Positions 4,229 to 38,012 of a stretch of 64,000 nt of DNA are shown here, one piece after another. How positions within the stretch are numbered: position 1 is the first letter of the stretch; every line of letters starts with the position of its first letter. The DNA lies in contig JBGTBM010000010.1 of the NCBI GenBank assembly GCA_041749335.1, forward strand, positions 221,110-285,109. Direction: 5' to 3'. Position numbers and translations under genes: made by a program. The stretch is from Patescibacteria group bacterium (GTDB lineage: Bacteria > Patescibacteriota > JABMPQ01). The notes under the pieces are model-generated. The model saw nothing but the letters and a program-made list of their open reading frames with translations, had not been told where the DNA came from and searched no databases.

Positions 4229-7200
4229 ATGTCAAATTTTACTCATTTGCATGTCCATAGCCATTATTCACTTTTGGATGGTTTGGCTAAAATTGACGAT
4301 TTATTAGAAAAAGCCAAAAAATATAAGATGGATTCTTTGGCTCTGACTGATCATGGAGTAATGTATGGAGCCATTGAGTTTTATCAAAAAGCTATAAATT
4401 GTGGCATTAAGCCTCTGATCGGAGTAGAAGCCTATATCGCTCCGAACAGCAGAAACATGAAAAGACCTAGAATAGATACCAGGCCATATCATATAGTACT
4501 TATCGCCGAAAACCTCCAGGGATATCAAAATTTACTTAAATTGACTTCCATAGCCCATATGGAAGGTTTTTATTATAAGCCCAGAATAGATTTTGAAATA
4601 TTAAAAAAATATAATCAGGGTATTATCGCCTTGTCGGCTTGCCTGGAAGGAGAAATCCCCCGGCAATTACTTTCGCATAATTACGAAATGGCCGAAGAAG
4701 CTGCAAATAGATACCAGCAAATTTTTGGGAAAGAAAATTTTTATTTAGAAGTCCAAGATCACCCTAATCTTGCTAATCAAGTCAAGGTAAACGAAAAAAT
4801 AATCGAACTAAGCAAATCTCTGAAAATTCCATTAGTAGCTACTAATGATACGCATTATTTAAATTCCGATGATGACAAGGTCCATGACGTTTTAATGTGC
4901 ATCCAAACGCAAAAAACCGTTAATGAAAAAAATCGCATATCTCTTCTTGGACACGATTTGTCCTTAAGAACTCCGGAAGATATGATTACAAGCTTTTCCC
5001 ATATACCCGAAGCTATAGAAAATACTAATATTATTGCCGATCGATGCAACTTTGAAATAGAACTCAAAAAAACTAAACTGCCCTACTATCCAATTCCGGA
5101 TAGATCCACTGATGATGAATATATCCGCAAATTATGTTATTTGGGACTTAAGAAAAAGTATGGCATTGCAAATACTGATAGTATTCCAAACAATATGTCA
5201 GAGGAAACATATAAGGAAATAATTGAAAGATTGGAATATGAGCTTTCCGTCATTGAAAAAACAAAATTTTCTTCTTATTTTTTAATCGTACAAGATCTGG
5301 TTAACTGGGCTAAAAATCATGAGATCGTGGTGGGGCCGGGCCGCGGCAGCGCCGGCGGAAGCCTGGTAGCCTATCTTTTGAATATTACCGACGTTGATCC
5401 CATTAAATATAAACTTTTGTTTGAAAGATTTCTTAATCCGGAAAGAATTAGTATGCCTGATATTGATCTTGACTTTGCTGATACCAGGCGCGACGAGGTA
5501 ATTAAATATGTCAAAGAAAAATATGGAGAGAAAAGAGTAGCTCAAATCATTACTTTCGGAACTATGGCTGCCAGAGCTGCAGTACGAGATTGCGGACGCG
5601 CGCTGGGTTATCCTTACGATTATTGCGATAAAGTAGCTAAAATGATTCCGATGTTTAATTCTTTGGATAAAGCTCTAGAGACGGTTCCGGAACTCAAAGA
5701 CCTCTATACTCACGATCCTCAAGCTACCAAGCTTTTAAATTTTTCAAAAAAACTGGAAGGCGTGGCCCGCCATGCCTCTACCCATGCCTGCGGAACAGTA
5801 ATTTCAGCGGGAGATTTGGATGATTTTATGCCAATACAATACGCCAGCCAAGACGACAAAACTGTTATCACTCAATATGAAATGCACGGCGTAGAAGATC
5901 TTGGATTGTTAAAAATGGATTTTTTGGGGCTAAAAAATTTAACTATTATTGAAAATGCTTTAAAAATAATTGCCAAGGTCCACAAAATAAAACTGGAAAC
6001 CAAGACTTTTCCCCTAGACGATAAATCATCCTATGAACTTTTCCAAAAAGGAAATACTACCGGAATTTTTCAGTTTGAGTCAGCCGGCATGAAAAGGTAT
6101 TTAAAACAGTTGAAGCCGACAGAATTTGAGGATCTAATCGCTATGGTAGCGCTATATCGCCCAGGACCCATGGACTGGATTCCCGACTATATATCGGGTA
6201 AACACGGTAAAAAGAAAATAGCCTATATCCACCCCAAATTGGAACCAATCCTTAATCAAACTTATGGAGTCGCCATCTACCAAGAACAAGTGATGCAGAT
6301 AGCGCGAGATTTAGCCGGATTTACTTTGGCTGAAGCCGATGTATTACGCAAAGCAGTCGGAAAAAAGATCAAAGAGCTTTTAATGGAGCAAAAGAAAAAA
6401 TTTATTAACGGCTGCATCGCTAATGATATTGAAAAAGTGACAGCGGAAAAGATATTCAACTTTATCGAACCTTTTGCGGGTTATGGCTTCAACCGCAGCC
6501 ACGCCGCTTGTTATGCCATGATTGCCTACCAAACGGCATATTTAAAAGCTCATTACCCTACTGAATTTATGGCATCTCTGCTAACCGCCGACCAGGAAAA
6601 TACCGACCGAGTATCTATTGAAATTTCCGAGTGCGACCAAATGGGCATTGATGTTTTGCCTCCCGACGTCAATGAAAGCTTTGCAACTTTTGCCGTTGTT
6701 CCCAATACAAAAAATATTCGTTTTGCTTTTTCCGCCATAAAAAATCTTGGCCACAGCATTATTGAAAGAATTATTGAAGAAAGAAAAGCAAATGGCAAAT
6801 ATGTAAGCCTGGATGATTTTTTACAAAGAGTCAGCTCTAAAGAACTTAATAAAAAATCATTGGAAAGTTTGGCAAAGAGTGGCGCTCTAGATAAATTCGC
6901 CGAACGAAAAAAAATTCTAGGAAATATTGAGACAATTTTGGAATATATTAAAAATATAAAAAAGGCTAACGACTCGGGCCAGACCGATCTTTTTGGAGGA
7001 ATAAATAACGAGGAATCCAATTCACCTAAAATAAAATTAGAAGAGATTGAGCCTGCCGACAAGCACGAAAGACTTTCATGGGAAAAAGAACTGATGGGCC
7101 TCTATATCTCCGAGCATCCCATTGATGAATTTAGGGAGTATTTAATTCATTATAAATATTTAATTAAAGACATAAGAGAGAGAAAAAGCGGTGAGGTTAT

Positions 7201-20324: not shown

Positions 20325-20729
20325 TTATAAATTTTTAATCAGTTTTTCTGCCACTATTTGTGCTTCTTGTTCTTGATATTTCCGTTGCGGCCACAACCTC
20401 AAGCCGTCGCCTTTTACCCTAGGTATCACATGAAAATGTACATGCGGCACCACTTGCCCCGCCATTGTTCTATTATTCAGCGCTAAATTATATCCTTTAA
20501 CATTCAAGCCCTTTATCATCGCCTGACCAATCTTTTTAACTACTTTGCTCATTTCGCATAATATATTCTCCGGCAACTCTTCAATATTTTCAAAATGTTC
20601 TTTGGGAATTACTAAAGTATGCCCGGGATTAACCGGCATTATATCCAAAAAAGCGAAGACCTGATCGTTTTCATAGATTTTTTCACAAGGCACCTCGCCT
20701 TTTAATATTTTACAGAAAATACAATCCAT
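20325..20729 (-). CDS. HIT-family (HINT-like) hydrolase
   Basis: 134 aa; CIFCKI...NPGHTLVIPKEH...HVHFHVIPR histidine triad. Confidence 0.85.
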   Translation of the reverse strand: MDCIFCKILKGEVPCEKIYENDQVFAFLDIMPVNPGHTLVIPKEHFENIEELPENILCEMSKVVKKIGQAMIKGLNVKGYNLALNNRTMAGQVVPHVHFHVIPRVKGDGLRLWPQRKYQEQEAQIVAEKLIKNL

Positions 20730-20760
20730 AGGTTAGTTATTAGTCAATAGTCATTAGTGA

Positions 20761-21243
20761 TTAGTTGTGCTTAGTCCAATCATATCCGATCTTCTCGTCA
20801 TCATAAGCAATACGCTCTTCGTCCGGACTTTGGGCATTATAGCTTTCAGTGGTGTGATAAAAAAGATGCGCCGGCTTGTCACCCAATACCTTATAACCAT
20901 GAGCCACTCCCACCGGTATTAATATCACCTGCGGGTCATTTTCGCCATCACACAGTATCTCTTGAGTCTCCCCAAATGTCGGAGAATCTTCTCTCAAATC
21001 ATATAAGACTACCACTGCACGTCCGGAAGATATAAACCATAAATCATCCTGCAATTTATGCCAATGAAAAGCTTTTATAGTGCCCGGATGAGCGACCGTG
21101 TAGGTTGTTTGACCATATTTTGAAAGCAGTCCTTCGTCATTTCTTAGCACTTCCATCAAATGTCCCTCTTTCTCCACCGGTTCCCTGGTATCCGGAATGT
21201 CTTTGTGTACTTTAAGTTTTTTAATTTTTACACCGTCTATCAT
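20761..21243 (-). CDS. rfbC: dTDP-4-dehydrorhamnose 3,5-epimerase-like cupin (RmlC family)
   Basis: 160 aa; KAFHWHKLQDDLWFISSGRAVVVLYDLREDSPTFGE...IPVGVAHGYKVL...YHTTESYN matches RmlC blocks. Confidence 0.75.
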   Translation of the reverse strand: MIDGVKIKKLKVHKDIPDTREPVEKEGHLMEVLRNDEGLLSKYGQTTYTVAHPGTIKAFHWHKLQDDLWFISSGRAVVVLYDLREDSPTFGETQEILCDGENDPQVILIPVGVAHGYKVLGDKPAHLFYHTTESYNAQSPDEERIAYDDEKIGYDWTKHN

Positions 21244-21297
21244 GTTCGTATGTTAATTATATAGATAAATTATAGCTTTTTAAAATTTTTATTTCAA

Positions 21298-21333
21298 TAA
21301 AAAAAGCAGAGGTTTTAAATCTCTGCTTTTTTA
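21298..21333. terminator. bidirectional rho-independent terminator downstream of surface-protein paralog 1
   Basis: aaaaaaaGCAGAGgttttaaatCTCTGCtttttt. Confidence 0.6.
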
Positions 21334-21337
21334 ATGA

Positions 21338-22270
21338 TTAATAGACTAAGATAATAAAATTTCTATCTTGTAGATTCCCTGCCCCGGTATCATGCGTATA
21401 AACCTGAACACTATTTGTATTAGAGGCATTGTTAAAGCTATAAGTGGCTAAGGTATCCGAGTCGGACATAGTAGTCCCATCTACAACGACAGAAATAAAT
21501 TTACCAGACACATTAAAACCAAAATTAACCTGATAACTTCCCGCAAGACCCGATCTCGTTATAGTTATATCGTTGGGACCAGCCGATCTTATGATCGATG
21601 GAGTTCCTTTACCATCTACCATTGCCATAGCTTTAACTGCACCATATCTCGCCCAGTGCTGTACAATATCGCCATCTAAAGATAATTTTCCTTCATTACT
21701 AACAGTTAAACCGCCTCCTCCGGTATTTTTACCAATCTCAAGCTCGTCTCCAATAATTTTTGCTCCCGGAACCCATAAAATATCTGCGAGACCGGCATTA
21801 ATATTCCCTTTATTATCAATAGTAAGTGTCACTCCCTTAGAAGGATTTTCCATAAGTAATTTTCCACTTACTTGGACATCTTTTGTCCACACTTCATTCC
21901 ATCTATGCAAAGAATCACCAAAATTATTGATATTAGTTAAGGTGGGAATTATATGATCTGAAATTTTCAGAGGATTATCTCCTCCTTTTTCTGACCGCCA
22001 AATTTCTCCATCGATTCTCACGTCATCTCCAAATGTAACCGGATCGTCGCTGTTATTTACAATTGTTCCATTAAAAAAGGTTACGCCGCCAATTCCCGGT
22101 TCGCCAATATAGGCAGAGTTTGCATAAATAGTGCCATTTACGTCTAAACTTTCATTATAGGTAATCGTTGATGCCGGCTGAAGGACATCAGCATCTGACG
22201 CTGCAGCTACTGCGGAAAACACAAAAACACCCAGCACAATTGCCAGTGTTCCCAGAAGTTTAATTTTCAT
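21338..22270 (-). CDS. secreted surface protein, paralog 1 of a three-member family (conserved N-terminal domain, divergent C-terminus)
   Basis: Signal peptide MKIKLLGTLAIVLGVFVFSAVAAA; N-terminal block LQPASTITYNE..GIGGVTFFNGTIVNN..DGEIWRSEKGGDNPLKISD..PT.TN shared with ORFs 22390..23367 and 36855..38012. Confidence 0.6.
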   Translation of the reverse strand: MKIKLLGTLAIVLGVFVFSAVAAASDADVLQPASTITYNESLDVNGTIYANSAYIGEPGIGGVTFFNGTIVNNSDDPVTFGDDVRIDGEIWRSEKGGDNPLKISDHIIPTLTNINNFGDSLHRWNEVWTKDVQVSGKLLMENPSKGVTLTIDNKGNINAGLADILWVPGAKIIGDELEIGKNTGGGGLTVSNEGKLSLDGDIVQHWARYGAVKAMAMVDGKGTPSIIRSAGPNDITITRSGLAGSYQVNFGFNVSGKFISVVVDGTTMSDSDTLATYSFNNASNTNSVQVYTHDTGAGNLQDRNFIILVY

Positions 22271-22309
22271 TTGTTTTTTATTTATTGTTTTTTTTAACTA
22301 ATTTATTAT

Positions 22310-22339
22310 ATTTTACCCCCCCCCGACTACTTCTGTCAA
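22310..22339 (-). promoter_or_regulatory. promoter of paralog 1 with a G9 (C9 on + strand) homopolymer in the -35/-10 spacer
   Basis: Sense strand: TTGACA gaagtagtc GGGGGGGGG TAAAAT (18-nt spacer); C-run at 22316-22324. Confidence 0.5.
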
Positions 22340-22348
22340 GACGAGATA

Positions 22349-22378
22349 AGAAAAAAGCACCTCCGGAGAGAAGTGCTT
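22349..22378 (-). terminator. rho-independent terminator downstream of paralog 2
   Basis: Sense strand AAGCACttctctccggagGTGCTT then tttttt. Confidence 0.5.
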
Positions 22379-22389
22379 TAAAATTTAAT

Positions 22390-23367
22390 CTAATAGACCG
22401 TTAACATAAATGACGAATCAATATTAGGAATTGTTGTTCCATTATCATCATATACAAATACATCAATTCCTTGAGCACCATTTATCGCTGTTGATATATC
22501 AGTCGGACTAACTCTTATTGGGGTTACTTGCCAATATCTATCATTTATATCAAATGCAAAATCAATAGTATAAACACCCGCTGGGTTTCCATCTTTTCTC
22601 TTACATGTTACTGAAGTATTATTAAATGTCCATGGTCTATTGCACAATCCATTAGATCCGACCATTACTAAGGCCTTAATAGCACCAGATGAATTTCTTG
22701 CTTGATATATATCTCCCTGAACGCCTAAATATGTTCCTACGTTTACATTTTTATCAACCGATATTCCTTCCTTAAACTCAACATTACTATTAAATATTGA
22801 ATTGTTTCCTACTCTTAACTGCCCATAACTATTTATTGTTACACCGCCTTGACTAAATCCTCCCGCAACATTAATGTTTTCAAAATCTGTCACCCCACTT
22901 ACATTTAAATCATTAAAGTTTGCCATCCCACTTATATTTATATCGTTAAAGTTCACATCTCCATTAAAATCAGCATTTTTAGCATACAACTTATTCCATC
23001 TATTTGCAGATGATCCAAAATCATTAGTATTTGTAATGGTCGGAATAACGTTATCAGAAATCTTTATTGGATCTCCACCCTTTACGCCTCTCCATATCTC
23101 TCCGTCCACTCTCATATCATCTGCAACAGTAAATGGATCTGTTGCCCCTTCATTTAGCACTGAACCATTAAAGAAAGTTACGCCACCCAATCCGGCCGTC
23201 CCTACTCTCAAAGAATCTGTATTTAAAGAGCCATTAATGTCTACATTTTCGTTGTAGATAATGTCTGATGCCGGTTGCAAAGTTGTAACATCTGACGCTG
23301 CAACGACTCCCGCGCAGAGGAATACTCCCAAAATAATAGTAAGCATTCCCGTTAGTTTTGTTTTCAT
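22390..23367 (-). CDS. secreted surface protein, paralog 2
   Basis: Signal peptide MKTKLTGMLTIILGVFLCAGVVAA; same N-terminal block as paralog 1; C-terminal half unrelated, rich in NFND/N-x-S/T motifs. Confidence 0.6.
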   Translation of the reverse strand: MKTKLTGMLTIILGVFLCAGVVAASDVTTLQPASDIIYNENVDINGSLNTDSLRVGTAGLGGVTFFNGSVLNEGATDPFTVADDMRVDGEIWRGVKGGDPIKISDNVIPTITNTNDFGSSANRWNKLYAKNADFNGDVNFNDINISGMANFNDLNVSGVTDFENINVAGGFSQGGVTINSYGQLRVGNNSIFNSNVEFKEGISVDKNVNVGTYLGVQGDIYQARNSSGAIKALVMVGSNGLCNRPWTFNNTSVTCKRKDGNPAGVYTIDFAFDINDRYWQVTPIRVSPTDISTAINGAQGIDVFVYDDNGTTIPNIDSSFMLTVY

Positions 23368-23387
23368 ATTTATTTGTTAGTTAATTT

Positions 23388-23424
23388 ATTATATTTTACC
23401 CCCCCCCCCAGCTACTTCTGTCAA
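23388..23424 (-). promoter_or_regulatory. promoter of paralog 2 with a G11 (C11 on + strand) homopolymer in the -35/-10 spacer
   Basis: Sense strand: TTGACA gaagtagct GGGGGGGGGGG TAAAAT (20-nt spacer); C-run at 23399-23409; flanks near-identical to the paralog 1 promoter. Confidence 0.5.
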
Positions 23425-23518
23425 AGCAAGGTGGGGATAAGTTTATTATTCAATTTACATTTAATGTCCTTACTGTAGAGGGACAGAACAATGTTCTGTC
23501 CCTACAAAAAAAATAATC

Positions 23519-23577
23519 CCTGAGCCCAGTCGAAGGGTTATTTTTGTCTAGCCTTCGACTTCGCTCAGGCAATAATT
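23519..23577 (-). terminator. long imperfect hairpin plus T-run (minus-strand terminator for the upstream GT operon)
   Basis: Minus strand reads cctgagcgaagtcgaagg...cccttcgactgggctcagg then gattatttttttt. Confidence 0.45.
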
Positions 23578-23780
23578 TATCTTTACGTTATTATAAATTC
23601 ACGAGATTTTCCTCCTTCAGCGGGCAGGCTTCTATTAATTGGCGGGATCGCAATGACGGAAAAAAAGAATGTTTTGGCATTTTGTAATTTGTTTGTATTT
23701 TGTTTTTTGTATCTTAATTTAATTTTTTTCAGCACCACCCCTTTAATTCCCCTCTCCTCCAAAGGCGGACAGGCTCATCT

Positions 23781-23788
23781 GGGGGGGG
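23781..23788 (+). repeat. orphan G8 homopolymer beside a TATATAAT box in a non-coding island
   Basis: ggacaggctcatctGGGGGGGGagacTATATAAT; homopolymers of 8 or more G/C are very rare at this base composition. Confidence 0.5.
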
Positions 23789-24018
23789 AGACTATATAAT
23801 TTAGTAAAACTGTTTAAGTTATAAGATTATTTTCAATACTTCTTTCTACTTCCTTCAATACTTCTTTCTTCTATTCCAAATTTGCATTTTTATACTAAAA
23901 AAGCGGGGCCACATAGATTGCGCGGCTCCCGCTCGAGGCTTAAATTCTTAAATTTTTGTAAGAATTCTCACCTAGTGAGATTACATAGTTTTTGGCTATG
24001 TAATCCGGTAGATGAAAA

Positions 24019-24207
24019 TTACACGCTTCCCCGCCCTATATTAATATACCGATTTACCAGTAAAAATATCATCAAAGCGAGGCTTGTAAACACCACTCCG
24101 TATTCCGAATAGACATTGGGCTCGTCGGACATAATGTCATGGATGGCTGCCCAGTTAATGCCAATAAAAGGCATTGAAACTAAAATTCTGATTAAATTTT
24201 TTTTCAT
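24019..24207 (-). CDS. possible small membrane protein downstream of the GT4 gene
   Basis: 62 aa ORF MKKNLIRILVSMPFIGINWAAIHDIMSDEPNVYSEYGVVFTSLALMIFLLVNRYINIGRG with two hydrophobic stretches; starts 6 nt after the GT stop. Weak support. Confidence 0.3.
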   Translation of the reverse strand: MKKNLIRILVSMPFIGINWAAIHDIMSDEPNVYSEYGVVFTSLALMIFLLVNRYINIGRGSV

Positions 24208-24212
24208 GTTGA

Positions 24213-25385
24213 TTAATTTACTTCCAGTGCGCTTTCTTTTACTTCCACATATTGTGTAGACAGCACTCGGGCATACAAATTTATTGTTTTTTTCGTGATA
24301 TCTTCCCAGTTGTAATTTTTAGATACATGTTTTTCCGCTTTGGCGCCAGTTTCAGCGACCAATTGAGGATTAGTAAGCAGTAGCTTTAACTTATATTTCA
24401 AATCTGCCACATTCTTGTTTTTAAACATATAGCCATTGCCGGCGAATGCTTCAATATTTTCCGGAATATTACTAACAAGAACTGTATTTCCATATTGCAT
24501 TGCCTCAAGGACAGTTATGGGAAGACCCTCTGATTCAGATGGATGAACATATAAATAAGCATTGTTAAATAGCTGGGATAAAGTTTTTCCAGACTGAAAG
24601 CCGGTAAAAACTATATCTTCCCTACCTTTGGCCAGTTTTTTTAAATAAGTTACATAATCATCGGTATAAGCAGAATCGCCCACTATCACCAGTTTAAGTT
24701 CTTTTAATTTTGATTCCCCTACTTCTTTTTTCAAATCAATAAAAGCCTTAATCAGATAATGAATGCCTTTATGGCGCACCAGCCGCGCGCAGGTCATAAT
24801 GTATGAGTTGGGCCTTAAATTAAATTTTCTGATATTGTCGAATCCTTCATGTTTTTCTATGGCTACTCCATTGGGGATATAATCAATATTGGCATGATAT
24901 TTCTTTAAACCTAAATCTCTAATAATTTTAGAAACGCCAATAGACTGATGGGGAAATTTACATGCGGCATATTCGCCAAACCTTAAGTACATTCTGGCAA
25001 AGCGGCCCCATTTTTGATGAAACTGATCGCGGCAATGAAAAGTAGAGACAACTTTGGCTTTTCTCTTTAATAACCTGGGAATAAAACTTAAAGTAGATGG
25101 TCCTACTCCCTGGTAGTGAATAATGTCAAAATTTCGCCTTAAAGCGTCCAAAGATGCAAAAAGCGTATGAGTAATCGCATCCAGATGCTTAGTCCTCAAA
25201 GAAGGCAAATAAATTAAATTTACTCCTTTATATTTTTTATCTTGATACTGAGTATAATGTTTACGTGAATAAACATAAACATCATGTCCGGCTTTAGCTA
25301 ATCTGATGCTAAGCTCTTCGGCATGCCTTTCTATTCCTCCCGATCTAGCCGGAATTCCTTTTTGTCCTATTAATGCTATCTTCAT
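24213..25385 (-). CDS. glycosyltransferase family 4 (GT-B fold)
   Basis: 390 aa; MKIALIGQKGIPARSGGIERH N-terminus; C-terminal GT4 motif PSESEGLPITVLEAMQYGNTVLVSNIPEN. Confidence 0.85.
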   Translation of the reverse strand: MKIALIGQKGIPARSGGIERHAEELSIRLAKAGHDVYVYSRKHYTQYQDKKYKGVNLIYLPSLRTKHLDAITHTLFASLDALRRNFDIIHYQGVGPSTLSFIPRLLKRKAKVVSTFHCRDQFHQKWGRFARMYLRFGEYAACKFPHQSIGVSKIIRDLGLKKYHANIDYIPNGVAIEKHEGFDNIRKFNLRPNSYIMTCARLVRHKGIHYLIKAFIDLKKEVGESKLKELKLVIVGDSAYTDDYVTYLKKLAKGREDIVFTGFQSGKTLSQLFNNAYLYVHPSESEGLPITVLEAMQYGNTVLVSNIPENIEAFAGNGYMFKNKNVADLKYKLKLLLTNPQLVAETGAKAEKHVSKNYNWEDITKKTINLYARVLSTQYVEVKESALEVN

Positions 25386-25624
25386 ACTTTTAAGTTATTT
25401 TAAGTTAAATTTATTACTTTTTGATCTGGACGCTAGCTTTTTTCCATTCCGATTAAACTATTTTAACTATGATATTTTTTTATGTTTTTATTTTTAAGCA
25501 ATTCATATTAACAGACTATAGTAGCATACTTTAATTTTATTGTCAAGGGTTTTTGACAAAGATTGCTCCAATATAAAAAACACCCTTAATGATGGTGCTT
25601 TTATAGTATTTGCCAGAAATTATT

Positions 25625-36854: not shown

Positions 36855-38012
36855 TTAGTGCAAAACGACCCAGCTACTGCCATCGCATACCCTTAATTTA
36901 TCGGTTGAATCATCAAACCAAAGCATACCTTTGGTAAAATTATCAGCACATGTATAAGGTGCGCTATTATATGGTAATATTGTTAATGTTCCAACTACTG
37001 AAGAATTGTCCGACTGGACTTTTCCAATACTATAATTAGATCCGATTATAGTTTGAGCATCAATACTGGCATTTACATCAATGGTATTAACATCATTCAA
37101 ACTATGATTACCCATTTCAATATCACCCGACATTGTTCCACCTGCTAAAGGTAGGTACTGACTTACGGTAATATTATCCGGAATATCAGCATCCGCAAGT
37201 CCGGATACTCCGTTGACAGCCAGGTTGCCAGTCAAGACCCCCCCCGTTAATTGAAGATACCTGCCATCAGACTGTGCCTTAGTATAATAGTCGCCCGTAG
37301 AAAGTCCAGTTACCGTTGCTTCGCTAAAATCGACATCGCCAGTAAATTTCACATCATTGCCTTCTAATAAACCGCTAAATTTAGCATTATTTCCCTGCAA
37401 AGAACCGCTCAGCTCTACATCAACACCCTGTAACATTCCAGATAAATATAAATCGTTCCAGCGTTTATTTGCAGATCCTAAATTATTAATATCATCCTTG
37501 GTCGGATACATTGAATCGGAAACAAATAAGGGATCATCGCCATCAATTATTCCTTTTTTAGTGCCACCCCATATTTCCCTACCAACCATAAAATCTTCAC
37601 CATATAAATATCCCGCCAAATAAAGATCTTTCCATCTTTTATCATCAAACCCCAAATTATATGCATTAGTGTCTGTTGGCGTTAAAGAATCAGAAAATTT
37701 AAGCGGCTGGCCATCGGCTTGCCCCTTGCTGGGACCGCGCCAAATTTCACCATCAATCCGCAAATCATCGCCGATCGTAACCGGAATTTGCGGACCGACA
37801 TTAATAATCGTGCCATTGAAGTAAGTAACTCCACCCACTCCTTCATAGCCTACACGCAACGAGCTGACTTGCAAGGAGCCATTAACTGTCATATTCTCAT
37901 TATAAACAATGCTAGCTGGCTGGATCATTTCCGCGGTAGAAGCGTTGGTTGCGCTAGCAAACAAAGCTAAAGCTGTAATTCCTAAAGTTAAACCTAATAT
38001 TTTTGTTTTCAT
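36855..38012 (-). CDS. secreted surface protein, paralog 3; contains an in-frame G8 coding homopolymer
   Basis: Signal peptide MKTKILGLTLGITALALFASATNA; N-terminal block IQPASIVYNE..GVGGVTYFNGTIINV..DGEIWRGPSKG..PLKFSD shared with paralogs 1 and 2; currently an intact 385-aa frame. Confidence 0.6.
   Translation of the reverse strand: MKTKILGLTLGITALALFASATNASTAEMIQPASIVYNENMTVNGSLQVSSLRVGYEGVGGVTYFNGTIINVGPQIPVTIGDDLRIDGEIWRGPSKGQADGQPLKFSDSLTPTDTNAYNLGFDDKRWKDLYLAGYLYGEDFMVGREIWGGTKKGIIDGDDPLFVSDSMYPTKDDINNLGSANKRWNDLYLSGMLQGVDVELSGSLQGNNAKFSGLLEGNDVKFTGDVDFSEATVTGLSTGDYYTKAQSDGRYLQLTGGVLTGNLAVNGVSGLADADIPDNITVSQYLPLAGGTMSGDIEMGNHSLNDVNTIDVNASIDAQTIIGSNYSIGKVQSDNSSVVGTLTILPYNSAPYTCADNFTKGMLWFDDSTDKLRVCDGSSWVVLH
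37238..37245 (-). repeat. C8 (G8 on sense strand) homopolymer inside the paralog 3 coding sequence
   Basis: caagaCCCCCCCCgttaat; sense ACG GGG GGG GTC encodes TGGV in LQLTGGVLTGN. Confidence 0.6.

Follow-up and report, generated by a model that had tools for sequence, protein, structure and literature searches.

The 64-kb window analysed here (64,000 nt of contig JBGTBM010000010.1, from a Patescibacteria group bacterium) carries on its minus strand a tandem pair of paralogous genes for predicted secreted proteins. Each is preceded by a putative σ70-type promoter with a run of G between its −35 and −10 elements, and the length of this run may tune transcription of the gene behind it. The genes and the elements that delimit their transcription units are:

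21338-22270, minus strand: paralog 1, 310 amino acids (aa); signal peptide, conserved N-terminal domain of ~125 aa and variable C-terminal β domain ending ...ILVY
22339-22310, minus strand: putative paralog 1 promoter, cTTGACAgaagtagtc-G9-TAAAATATAAT, with 18-nt spacer and 39 nt from −10 to ATG (−35 TTGACA, 22339-22334; nine nucleotides, N9, gaagtagtc, 22333-22325; G9, 22324-22316; −10 TAAAAT, 22315-22310)
22390-23367, minus strand: paralog 2, 325 aa; N-terminal architecture as in paralog 1, middle and C-terminal parts divergent
23424-23393, minus strand: putative paralog 2 promoter, tTTGACAgaagtagct-G11-TAAAATATAAT, with 20-nt spacer and 25 nt from −10 to ATG (−35 TTGACA, 23424-23419; N9 gaagtagct, 23418-23410; G11, 23409-23399; −10 TAAAAT, 23398-23393)
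22379-22354, minus strand: intrinsic terminator of paralog 2, an 11-bp stem and T-run, 14 nt upstream of the paralog 1 −35
21299-21330, minus strand: terminator-like hairpin (agcagag...ctctgct and T-run) 3' of paralog 1, found by eye and absent from the terminator scan list
23430-23440, minus strand: box ttatccccacc, directly 5' of the paralog 2 −35

TTGACA and TAAAAT would be the −35 and −10 elements of a genuine promoter, and the tract, placed between them, would set the spacer by its length. (On the plus strand the tracts read as C-runs, at 22316-22324 for paralog 1 and 23399-23409 for paralog 2.) Both runs are uninterrupted and of slippable length, that is, about 7-8 nt or more. A preliminary description of this DNA had placed tracts of G9 and G11 between these hexamers, with spacers of 18 and 20 nt, and the sequence bears this out. 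It had also called the two upstream regions near-identical, which holds for a promoter core of ~45 bp and not beyond it; protein identity is 35% overall, with 56% in the N-terminal ~132 aa (65% for the first 390 nt of coding sequence). In a promoter scan that covered spacers of 16-18 nt, the paralog 1 site is the top σ70-like match within 20500-25500, with 11 of 12 positions; the paralog 2 site, with its 20-nt spacer, lies outside the range of that scan and also scores 11 of 12 in a separate scan that allowed wider spacers. Because the intrinsic terminator separates paralog 2 from paralog 1, each paralog is a transcription unit of its own. Rfam at its gathering thresholds recognizes only three tRNAs in the window, and a permissive Rfam scan of 23380-24260 returned only hairpin-like matches, far under threshold.

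Long G/C runs are rare in DNA of this composition. The GC content of the window is 36.8% (the preliminary description had given about 34% for the genome), and the argument that homopolymers of 9-11 nt are unlikely to arise by chance stands: the expected number of G/C runs in 64 kb is 0.04 (from base composition) to 0.3 (first-order Markov) for runs of at least 9 nt, and 0.0015-0.02 for runs of at least 11 nt. The G9 and G11 tracts count as one event, not two, since the promoters are paralogous. There are four G/C runs of at least 8 nt in the window, all of them in or beside the paralog family (P about 2e-5 to 3e-4): in the two promoters, in a degenerate inverted promoter copy and inside the coding sequence (CDS) of a third paralog. 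Other Patescibacteria DNA has 5 G/C runs of at least 8 nt in 392 kb, and in ~42 kb from a related genome represented by a 551-kb contig, four promoter tracts are the sole runs of 7 nt or more.

The spacers of the two family promoters also stand apart locally. The six other best promoters in the window (at least 11 of 12 positions, upstream of open reading frames, ORFs) have spacers of 16-17 nt and no G-run, and G(5+)-TAnnnT behind TTGACA is found in the window at the two family promoters only. Because local strong promoters use 16-17 nt, the 20-nt spacer is clearly over-long and the 18-nt spacer slightly long. The over-long spacing previously ascribed to paralog 2 is thereby upheld; the optimal spacing ascribed to paralog 1 is less clear.

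Related promoter copies and the proteins behind them

A homolog search returned only unnamed or hypothetical proteins of Patescibacteria and Parcubacteria. Look-ups by exact protein sequence, for the window paralogs and for P0001 and P0012, matched no contig in other assemblies. Comparison of the DNA around the closest homologs brings the number of promoter copies to nine (the two in the window and seven new ones), from four assemblies. (The contig L208, with protein P0006, starts 8 nt before its ATG, so that its promoter lies outside the comparison.) The segment N between −35 and tract, the tract and the spacer are, for each copy:

Window, paralog 1: gaagtagtc, G9, 18-nt spacer
Window, paralog 2: gaagtagct, G11, 20-nt spacer
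L001/P0005, ENA 551-kb contig: gaaagcatc, G10, 19-nt spacer
L004/P0010, ENA 551-kb contig: gaaagcatc, G10, 19-nt spacer
L004/P0016, ENA 551-kb contig: gagagcatc, G9, 18-nt spacer
L003/P0007, ENA 551-kb contig: gagagcatc, G8, 17-nt spacer
L207/P0032, Logan SRR19071534, CDS ~97% identical to paralog 1: agatgtatt, G9, 18-nt spacer
L206/P0004, Logan SRR19071534: tattccgc, G7, 15-nt spacer
L205/P0003, ENA, second contig of the same sample: taattcta, GGGAGGGG (interrupted), 16-nt spacer

None of the nine copies departs from TTGACA or TAAAAT. An uninterrupted G tract is present in eight, with lengths of 7, 8, 9, 9, 9, 10, 10 and 11, and in every one of these eight it is the non-template strand that carries the G's, with no gap between them and the −10 box; spacers over the nine copies are 15, 16, 17, 18, 18, 18, 19, 19 and 20 nt. 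Four copies (G10, G10, G9 and G8) lie on the one 551-kb contig, and two of them share the gene order of the window, GT4-GT4-[two paralogs]-RmlC-HIT-RmlB-ScpA-ScpB (L004). Positional orthologs differ in tract length, G11 versus G10. The conserved homopolymer-bearing promoter precedes two of the three paralogs in the window and all four found on the 551-kb contig.

Directly 5' of the tract, 8-9 nt are exchanged between genomes and the tract is kept: L207 has agatgtatt against gaagtagtc in the window, despite ~97% identity of the coding sequences. N9 hardly varies within a genome, a sign that the promoter cassette may evolve in concert. The ttatccccacc box is partly conserved in six of the nine copies and is possibly an UP-like element or a regulator site. 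A hairpin pairing this C-rich box (CCCCACC) with the poly-G run was considered and dropped, the box not being conserved in the L004 copies. Also rejected was the end of contig L002, 21 nt upstream of the tract, as a sign of polymorphism: a 37-nt repeat, common to two promoters and longer than the Logan k of 31, would explain the break in that contig.

The preliminary description had two tandem secreted paralogs. Signal peptides are indeed predicted for both, and a third member, without a poly-G promoter, is to be added:

36855-38012, minus strand: paralog 3, 385 aa; ordinary promoter, and a G8 run inside the CDS at 37238-37245

An alignment of 32 homologs has an N-terminal hydrophobic helix or signal peptide with a conserved AxA-type cleavage site, a conserved N-terminal domain of ~100 residues (GGVTFFNG, DDxRxDGEI, FGSSxNRW) and C-terminal modules of at least three types that are unrelated to each other. 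The AlphaFold2 model (pLDDT 69, pTM 0.39) is confident for the N-terminal helix and a C-terminal β-sandwich only. Searches against Pfam and PHROGs gave nothing above threshold, and Foldseek found no match of the model in the PDB at E 0.001 or better; the top sub-threshold fold and profile matches are to receptor-binding domains of phage tailspikes and tail fibres. No homolog of the window protein was found on viral contigs, so that a phage origin of the family is unsupported. Secreted, fibre-like, modular binding proteins is a reasonable description of these predicted products, and the genes behind the poly-G promoters can be taken, in silico, as coding for surface or interaction determinants.

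The G8 run of paralog 3 (codons acG GGG GGG Gtc, for T-G-G-V) lies inside a tail-fibre-like YLQLTGGVLTGNL motif, and a one-base slip in either direction would cut the protein short at about 259-275 aa. Long ORFs have 81 Gly-Gly codon pairs, and no other of these reads GGGGGG. Since ~1 such pair is expected by chance, the run is a weak candidate for translational phase variation.

Poly-G promoters outside the family

Among the metagenome matches listed for the promoter pattern, about 85% come from one human-gut locus, and in none of those listed does a homolog of the window protein follow the promoter. The gut locus belongs to a bacterium of ~60% GC and has TTGACAGAATGC(C)-G(n)-TAAAAT upstream of a lipoprotein gene (MKLFKKVLAAALAGVLALSVLTGC...), for example at L006, minus strand, 6137-6164 (in the contig series L006-L125). 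For the 86 contigs of this locus among the matches listed, the spacer is 15 nt in 27, 16 nt in 44, 17 nt in 9, 18 nt in 2, 19 nt in 2, 20 nt in 1 and 22 nt in 1. A range of 15-22 nt implies that a tract at this promoter position differs between natural populations, and on its sequence the gut lipoprotein promoter is a strong candidate for a phase-variable promoter in its own right.

A second setting, from a search of viral contigs for the promoter pattern, is a phage-like contig of 208 kb, IMGVR_UViG_3300015214_000001 (L212, L219, L223 and L225), which has ~22 runs of G7-G9 in ~40 kb, nearly all G8 or G9. These poly-G promoters precede unrelated ORFs and two paralogs. Eight ORFs of the contig have no PHROG match, and no similar annotated phage was found for it, a pyrophosphatase gene aside. 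Its promoters appear to form an undescribed class with a poly-G spacer. Their arrangement resembles that of the window in having TTGACA, a short N segment, (a/t)TC, G8 or G9 and TA(A/G)AAT, with the G-run touching the −10; they differ in having N7 instead of N9, spacers of mostly 15-16 nt, a nearly fixed G length and unrelated ORFs downstream. Many copies upstream of unrelated genes and a near-constant G length, the marks of a fixed poly-G promoter class, are not what the window promoters display. The variance of G length is 1.55 in the CPR (candidate phyla radiation, that is, Patescibacteria) copies and 0.36 on the 208-kb contig (F test, p=0.013), and the spans are 7-11 and 7-9, respectively.

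Some further arrangements were noted in passing. On L140 (JABMPQ010000030, Parcubacteria bin.624) another repeated cassette, GTGGATAAGTGA-G8 or G9-ATAGG...GGTATAAT, occurs at 709-760 and 2409-2460, with its G-run ~24 nt upstream of TATAAT; one copy stands before an unrelated secreted repeat protein of 535 aa and the other before a member of the paralog family. L172 is similar, with G10 (390-399) ~21 nt before TATAAT. L079 has, on the plus strand at about 2195-2290, TTGACAgaaatattc-G8-TAAAAT followed by a ribosome-binding site and ATG-A8. The start, as assembled, is out of frame with an ORF that has a signal peptide, and A7 would restore the frame; this gene could combine a promoter tract with a coding tract. 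L065 (TTGACAGAAGTAATC-G9-TAAAAT) is one base from window paralog 1 and drives an unrelated gene without signal peptide. Most poly-G/TAAAAT promoters, of sources unrelated to each other, have the dinucleotide TC directly before the G-run on its 5' side (window paralog 1; L001, L003 and L004; L059, L065, L079 and L101; the phage-like contig).

Slippage or a fixed promoter element

A conserved layout, tract lengths that differ among copies and among genomes, a transcription unit for each paralog and an association with one gene family suggest that transcription of these genes varies through strand slippage in the poly-G tract, much as in the vlp family of Mycoplasma hyorhinis; we put the probability of this reading at about 0.55. 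It has each paralog under a σ70-type promoter of its own, in which the G-run abutting the −10 would set the distance to the −35. Runs of 9-11 G would gain or lose a base by slipped-strand mispairing at replication, and the spacer would shift in 1-nt steps around the 16-17-nt norm. The tracts would thus slip within populations, expression would change with tract length, and selection would keep the arrangement. The output of each secreted fibre-like protein would rise or fall from one cell lineage to another, in a heritable and reversible way, and the two paralogs would do so independently. With the spacers found here, moderate activity would be expected of paralog 1 (18 nt) and weak or no activity of paralog 2 (20 nt). 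The G that the run provides at −14 could serve as half of an extended −10 box, and the effect may on that account be graded, not all-or-none. Homopolymers of such length do slip in replication and σ70 promoters are sensitive to spacer length (PMC11868660, PMC2268961); in the Mollicutes, indels in the spacer switch vlp, maa2 and vmm (PMC2268961).

The principal alternative, a tenable one that we hold to be the less probable, is that the G-run is itself a recognized or structural part of a promoter class. The tract lengths would then be fixed constitutive settings of each paralog, with slippage a by-product, and the run could act as the G at −14 (a partial extended −10), as a regulator-binding site or through a change of helical twist. 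Several observations weigh against slippage or favour this interpretation. At the copy adjacent to RmlC, the three genomes sampled (the window, L207 and L004) agree on G9, which indicates stability or selection for one state; comparison with related genomes, proposed in the preliminary description as a source of evidence, thus yields G7-G11 among copies with conserved flanks and a single length at this one position. On the 208-kb contig at least 13 runs fit aTTGACAaata(a/t)tc-G8/9-TA(G/A)AAT, with one copy at G7, before many unrelated ORFs, and it follows from this consensus that a promoter can have a G-run next to its −10 as a constant component. The difference in variance of G length between the CPR copies and that contig is not significant by Levene's test (p=0.11), and the spread of spacer lengths does not differ (p=0.69). 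Low-GC contigs that are unrelated also have the ...TC-G(n)-TAAAAT layout, and the eight copies with an unbroken tract all have the G's on the same strand and in the same position. The T-tract next to the −10 in the vpma genes of M. agalactiae, irrelevant to their switching, is a precedent for an inert homopolymer (PMC2268961).

Two more points count against slippage. Distant homologs of the window protein (79 loci, 25-54% identity, often ~10 per genome, in a protein-alignment scan with one genome per species) include a single locus with a G/C run of at least 7 nt within 300 nt upstream, in a different context; this makes the poly-G spacer a feature of a narrow lineage, not of the protein family. 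Mismatch repair varies among CPR groups (PMC8406219), and this lineage may or may not have it; no MutS or MutL motifs were found in the partial sequence of each genome examined, a result that is uninformative at that coverage.

On the other hand, a fixed element is difficult to reconcile with three features of the family. The other strong promoters of the window have no G-run, so that the RNA polymerase of this organism does not need one. Runs of 10-11 G with spacers of 19-20 nt are hard to square with optimized fixed settings. The interrupted copy, GGGAGGGG with 16 nt, implies that an unbroken run is not required for this promoter type.

It is improbable that the promoter has been wrongly assigned, with transcription starting from the TATAAT that overlaps TAAAATATAAT or from a site upstream, and with the tract as part of a 5' leader or of DNA without function. 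Other hexamers that resemble a −10 do occur in this AT-rich region. TAAAAT is nevertheless the likelier −10, being invariant along with TTGACA in the nine copies, whereas the overlapping TATAAT is not conserved (it is absent from the L001, L003, L004 and L205 copies) and would make the spacer 23-25 nt; moreover, the 25-39 nt from −10 to ATG match the other promoters of the genome. That the G9/G11 difference is unreal, the tract lengths being artefacts of sequencing or assembly, is more improbable still: short-read homopolymer lengths can be off by one, and several contigs with these genes end near the promoter (L002, L208), but at least four independent assemblies from different assemblers (NCBI metagenome-assembled genome, ENA SPAdes, Logan) have the tracts between unique flanking sequences, the ENA and Logan assemblies of one locus agree on G10, and a 2-nt difference within a single assembly is unlikely as an error.

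An inverted promoter copy and several repeat elements lie near the genes:

23765-23807, plus strand: degenerate inverted copy of the paralog 2 promoter, GGACA-ggctcatct-G8-agac-TATATAAT, pointing away from paralog 2
23479-23503 and 23503-23585: hairpin and palindrome sites (corresponding sites are L004 5746-5775 and 5800-5880, L001 7820-7905 and L207 45-115)

The inverted copy is 345-373 nt from the paralog 2 promoter and has no credible ORF downstream; with its spacing of 21-23 nt it is probably inactive as sampled. Its homologs in L207 (1-45) and L001 (7740-7790) are in gene orientation and have an interrupted G-rich stretch, and the difference in orientation implies that an inversion occurred at some point. 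An invertible promoter segment (arms 23381-23422 and 23768-23807) was considered, with this difference as its sole support, and not adopted. A perfect hairpin with a 12-bp stem, agggacagaaca/tgttctgtccct, and a longer palindrome (...cctgagcg.agtcgaagg...ccttcga...ctcagg...) recur upstream of paralog-family genes in several genomes. Rfam gives only sub-threshold hairpin matches for them, and both a terminator and a small mobile repeat element are conceivable identities.

Slippage-tuned transcription can be extended to a more ambitious picture, which we regard as doubtful in its entirety. Parcubacteria-like episymbionts would have a vlp-style combinatorial display, in which each of several attachment proteins resembling tail fibres, with a common N-terminal anchor and swapped receptor-binding C-termini, stands behind a concertedly evolving, slipping poly-G cassette. 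Single cells would carry different sets of adhesins, as bet-hedging on host attachment, and the G8 of paralog 3 and the inverted promoter copy would form a second layer. TTGACA-N-G(n)-TAAAAT would then be an undescribed tunable promoter class that crosses phyla, found also at the gut lipoprotein gene and in a jumbo-phage-like genome.

Known systems and what the arrangement would mean

Tracts in promoter spacers are established switches elsewhere. In Neisseria meningitidis, porA (poly-G) and opc (poly-C) have a tract of ~9-14 nt in the −35/−10 spacer, and expression of these outer-surface proteins is graded or on/off. They are single-copy genes of a pathogen with a genome of normal size, whereas the window cassette is common to a paralog family. 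In Bordetella pertussis, poly-C tracts in the promoters of the paralogous surface-structure genes fim2 and fim3 switch each gene independently. The fim tract sets the distance from the site of an activator (BvgA) to the −10, whereas no activator is known for the window promoters.

The vlp family of M. hyorhinis comes closest, and with it M. arthritidis maa2 and M. mycoides vmm: these are systems of reduced genomes with paralogous surface-protein genes, each with a conserved promoter and a homopolymer between −35 and −10 whose indels switch transcription (PMC2268961, citing Citti & Wise 1995). The vlp tract is poly-A, those in the window are poly-G, and the phylum differs; switching is proven for vlp and only proposed for the window. 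Vlp proteins are lipoproteins with in-frame tandem repeats. The window proteins have no lipobox (the signal peptide of paralog 1 is without Cys, and VFLC in paralog 2 is not a canonical lipobox), and TRF finds no tandem repeat within the CDS of paralog 1 or 2. The vpma genes of M. agalactiae also have a homopolymer directly upstream of the −10 in the promoter of a variable surface protein, but they switch by Xer1 inversion, and the T-tract was shown by experiment not to cause the variation (PMC2268961).

The mechanism itself is textbook knowledge; what would be new is the phylum. In the literature searched, no paper was found that connects phase-variable promoters with CPR, Patescibacteria or Saccharibacteria, and the nearest CPR report is of an intragenic hypervariable repeat in a Gracilibacterium (PMC6851277). 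The preliminary claim that contingency loci of this kind are essentially undescribed in reduced-genome, CPR-like bacteria agrees with this as far as the CPR is concerned, and is overstated for reduced genomes, of which the Mollicutes provide the classic cases (vlp, maa2, vmm; PMC2268961).

Unrelated organisms also have the poly-G spacer layout, and in one gut bacterium its tract length clearly differs between samples; the motif may deserve a systematic screen. Patescibacteria are ultra-small, mostly uncultured and thought to be attached to host cells, and variation of their surface is known mainly through diversity-generating retroelements, the recognized diversifier of surface and binding proteins in CPR genomes. 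Those elements alter protein sequence, whereas poly-G promoters would alter the level of expression, with neither a reverse transcriptase nor a template repeat. If transcription of the paralogs is indeed tuned by slippage, these cells would have, in a family of secreted fibre-like proteins, a cheap promoter-level hedge on attachment, or a means of evading phages.

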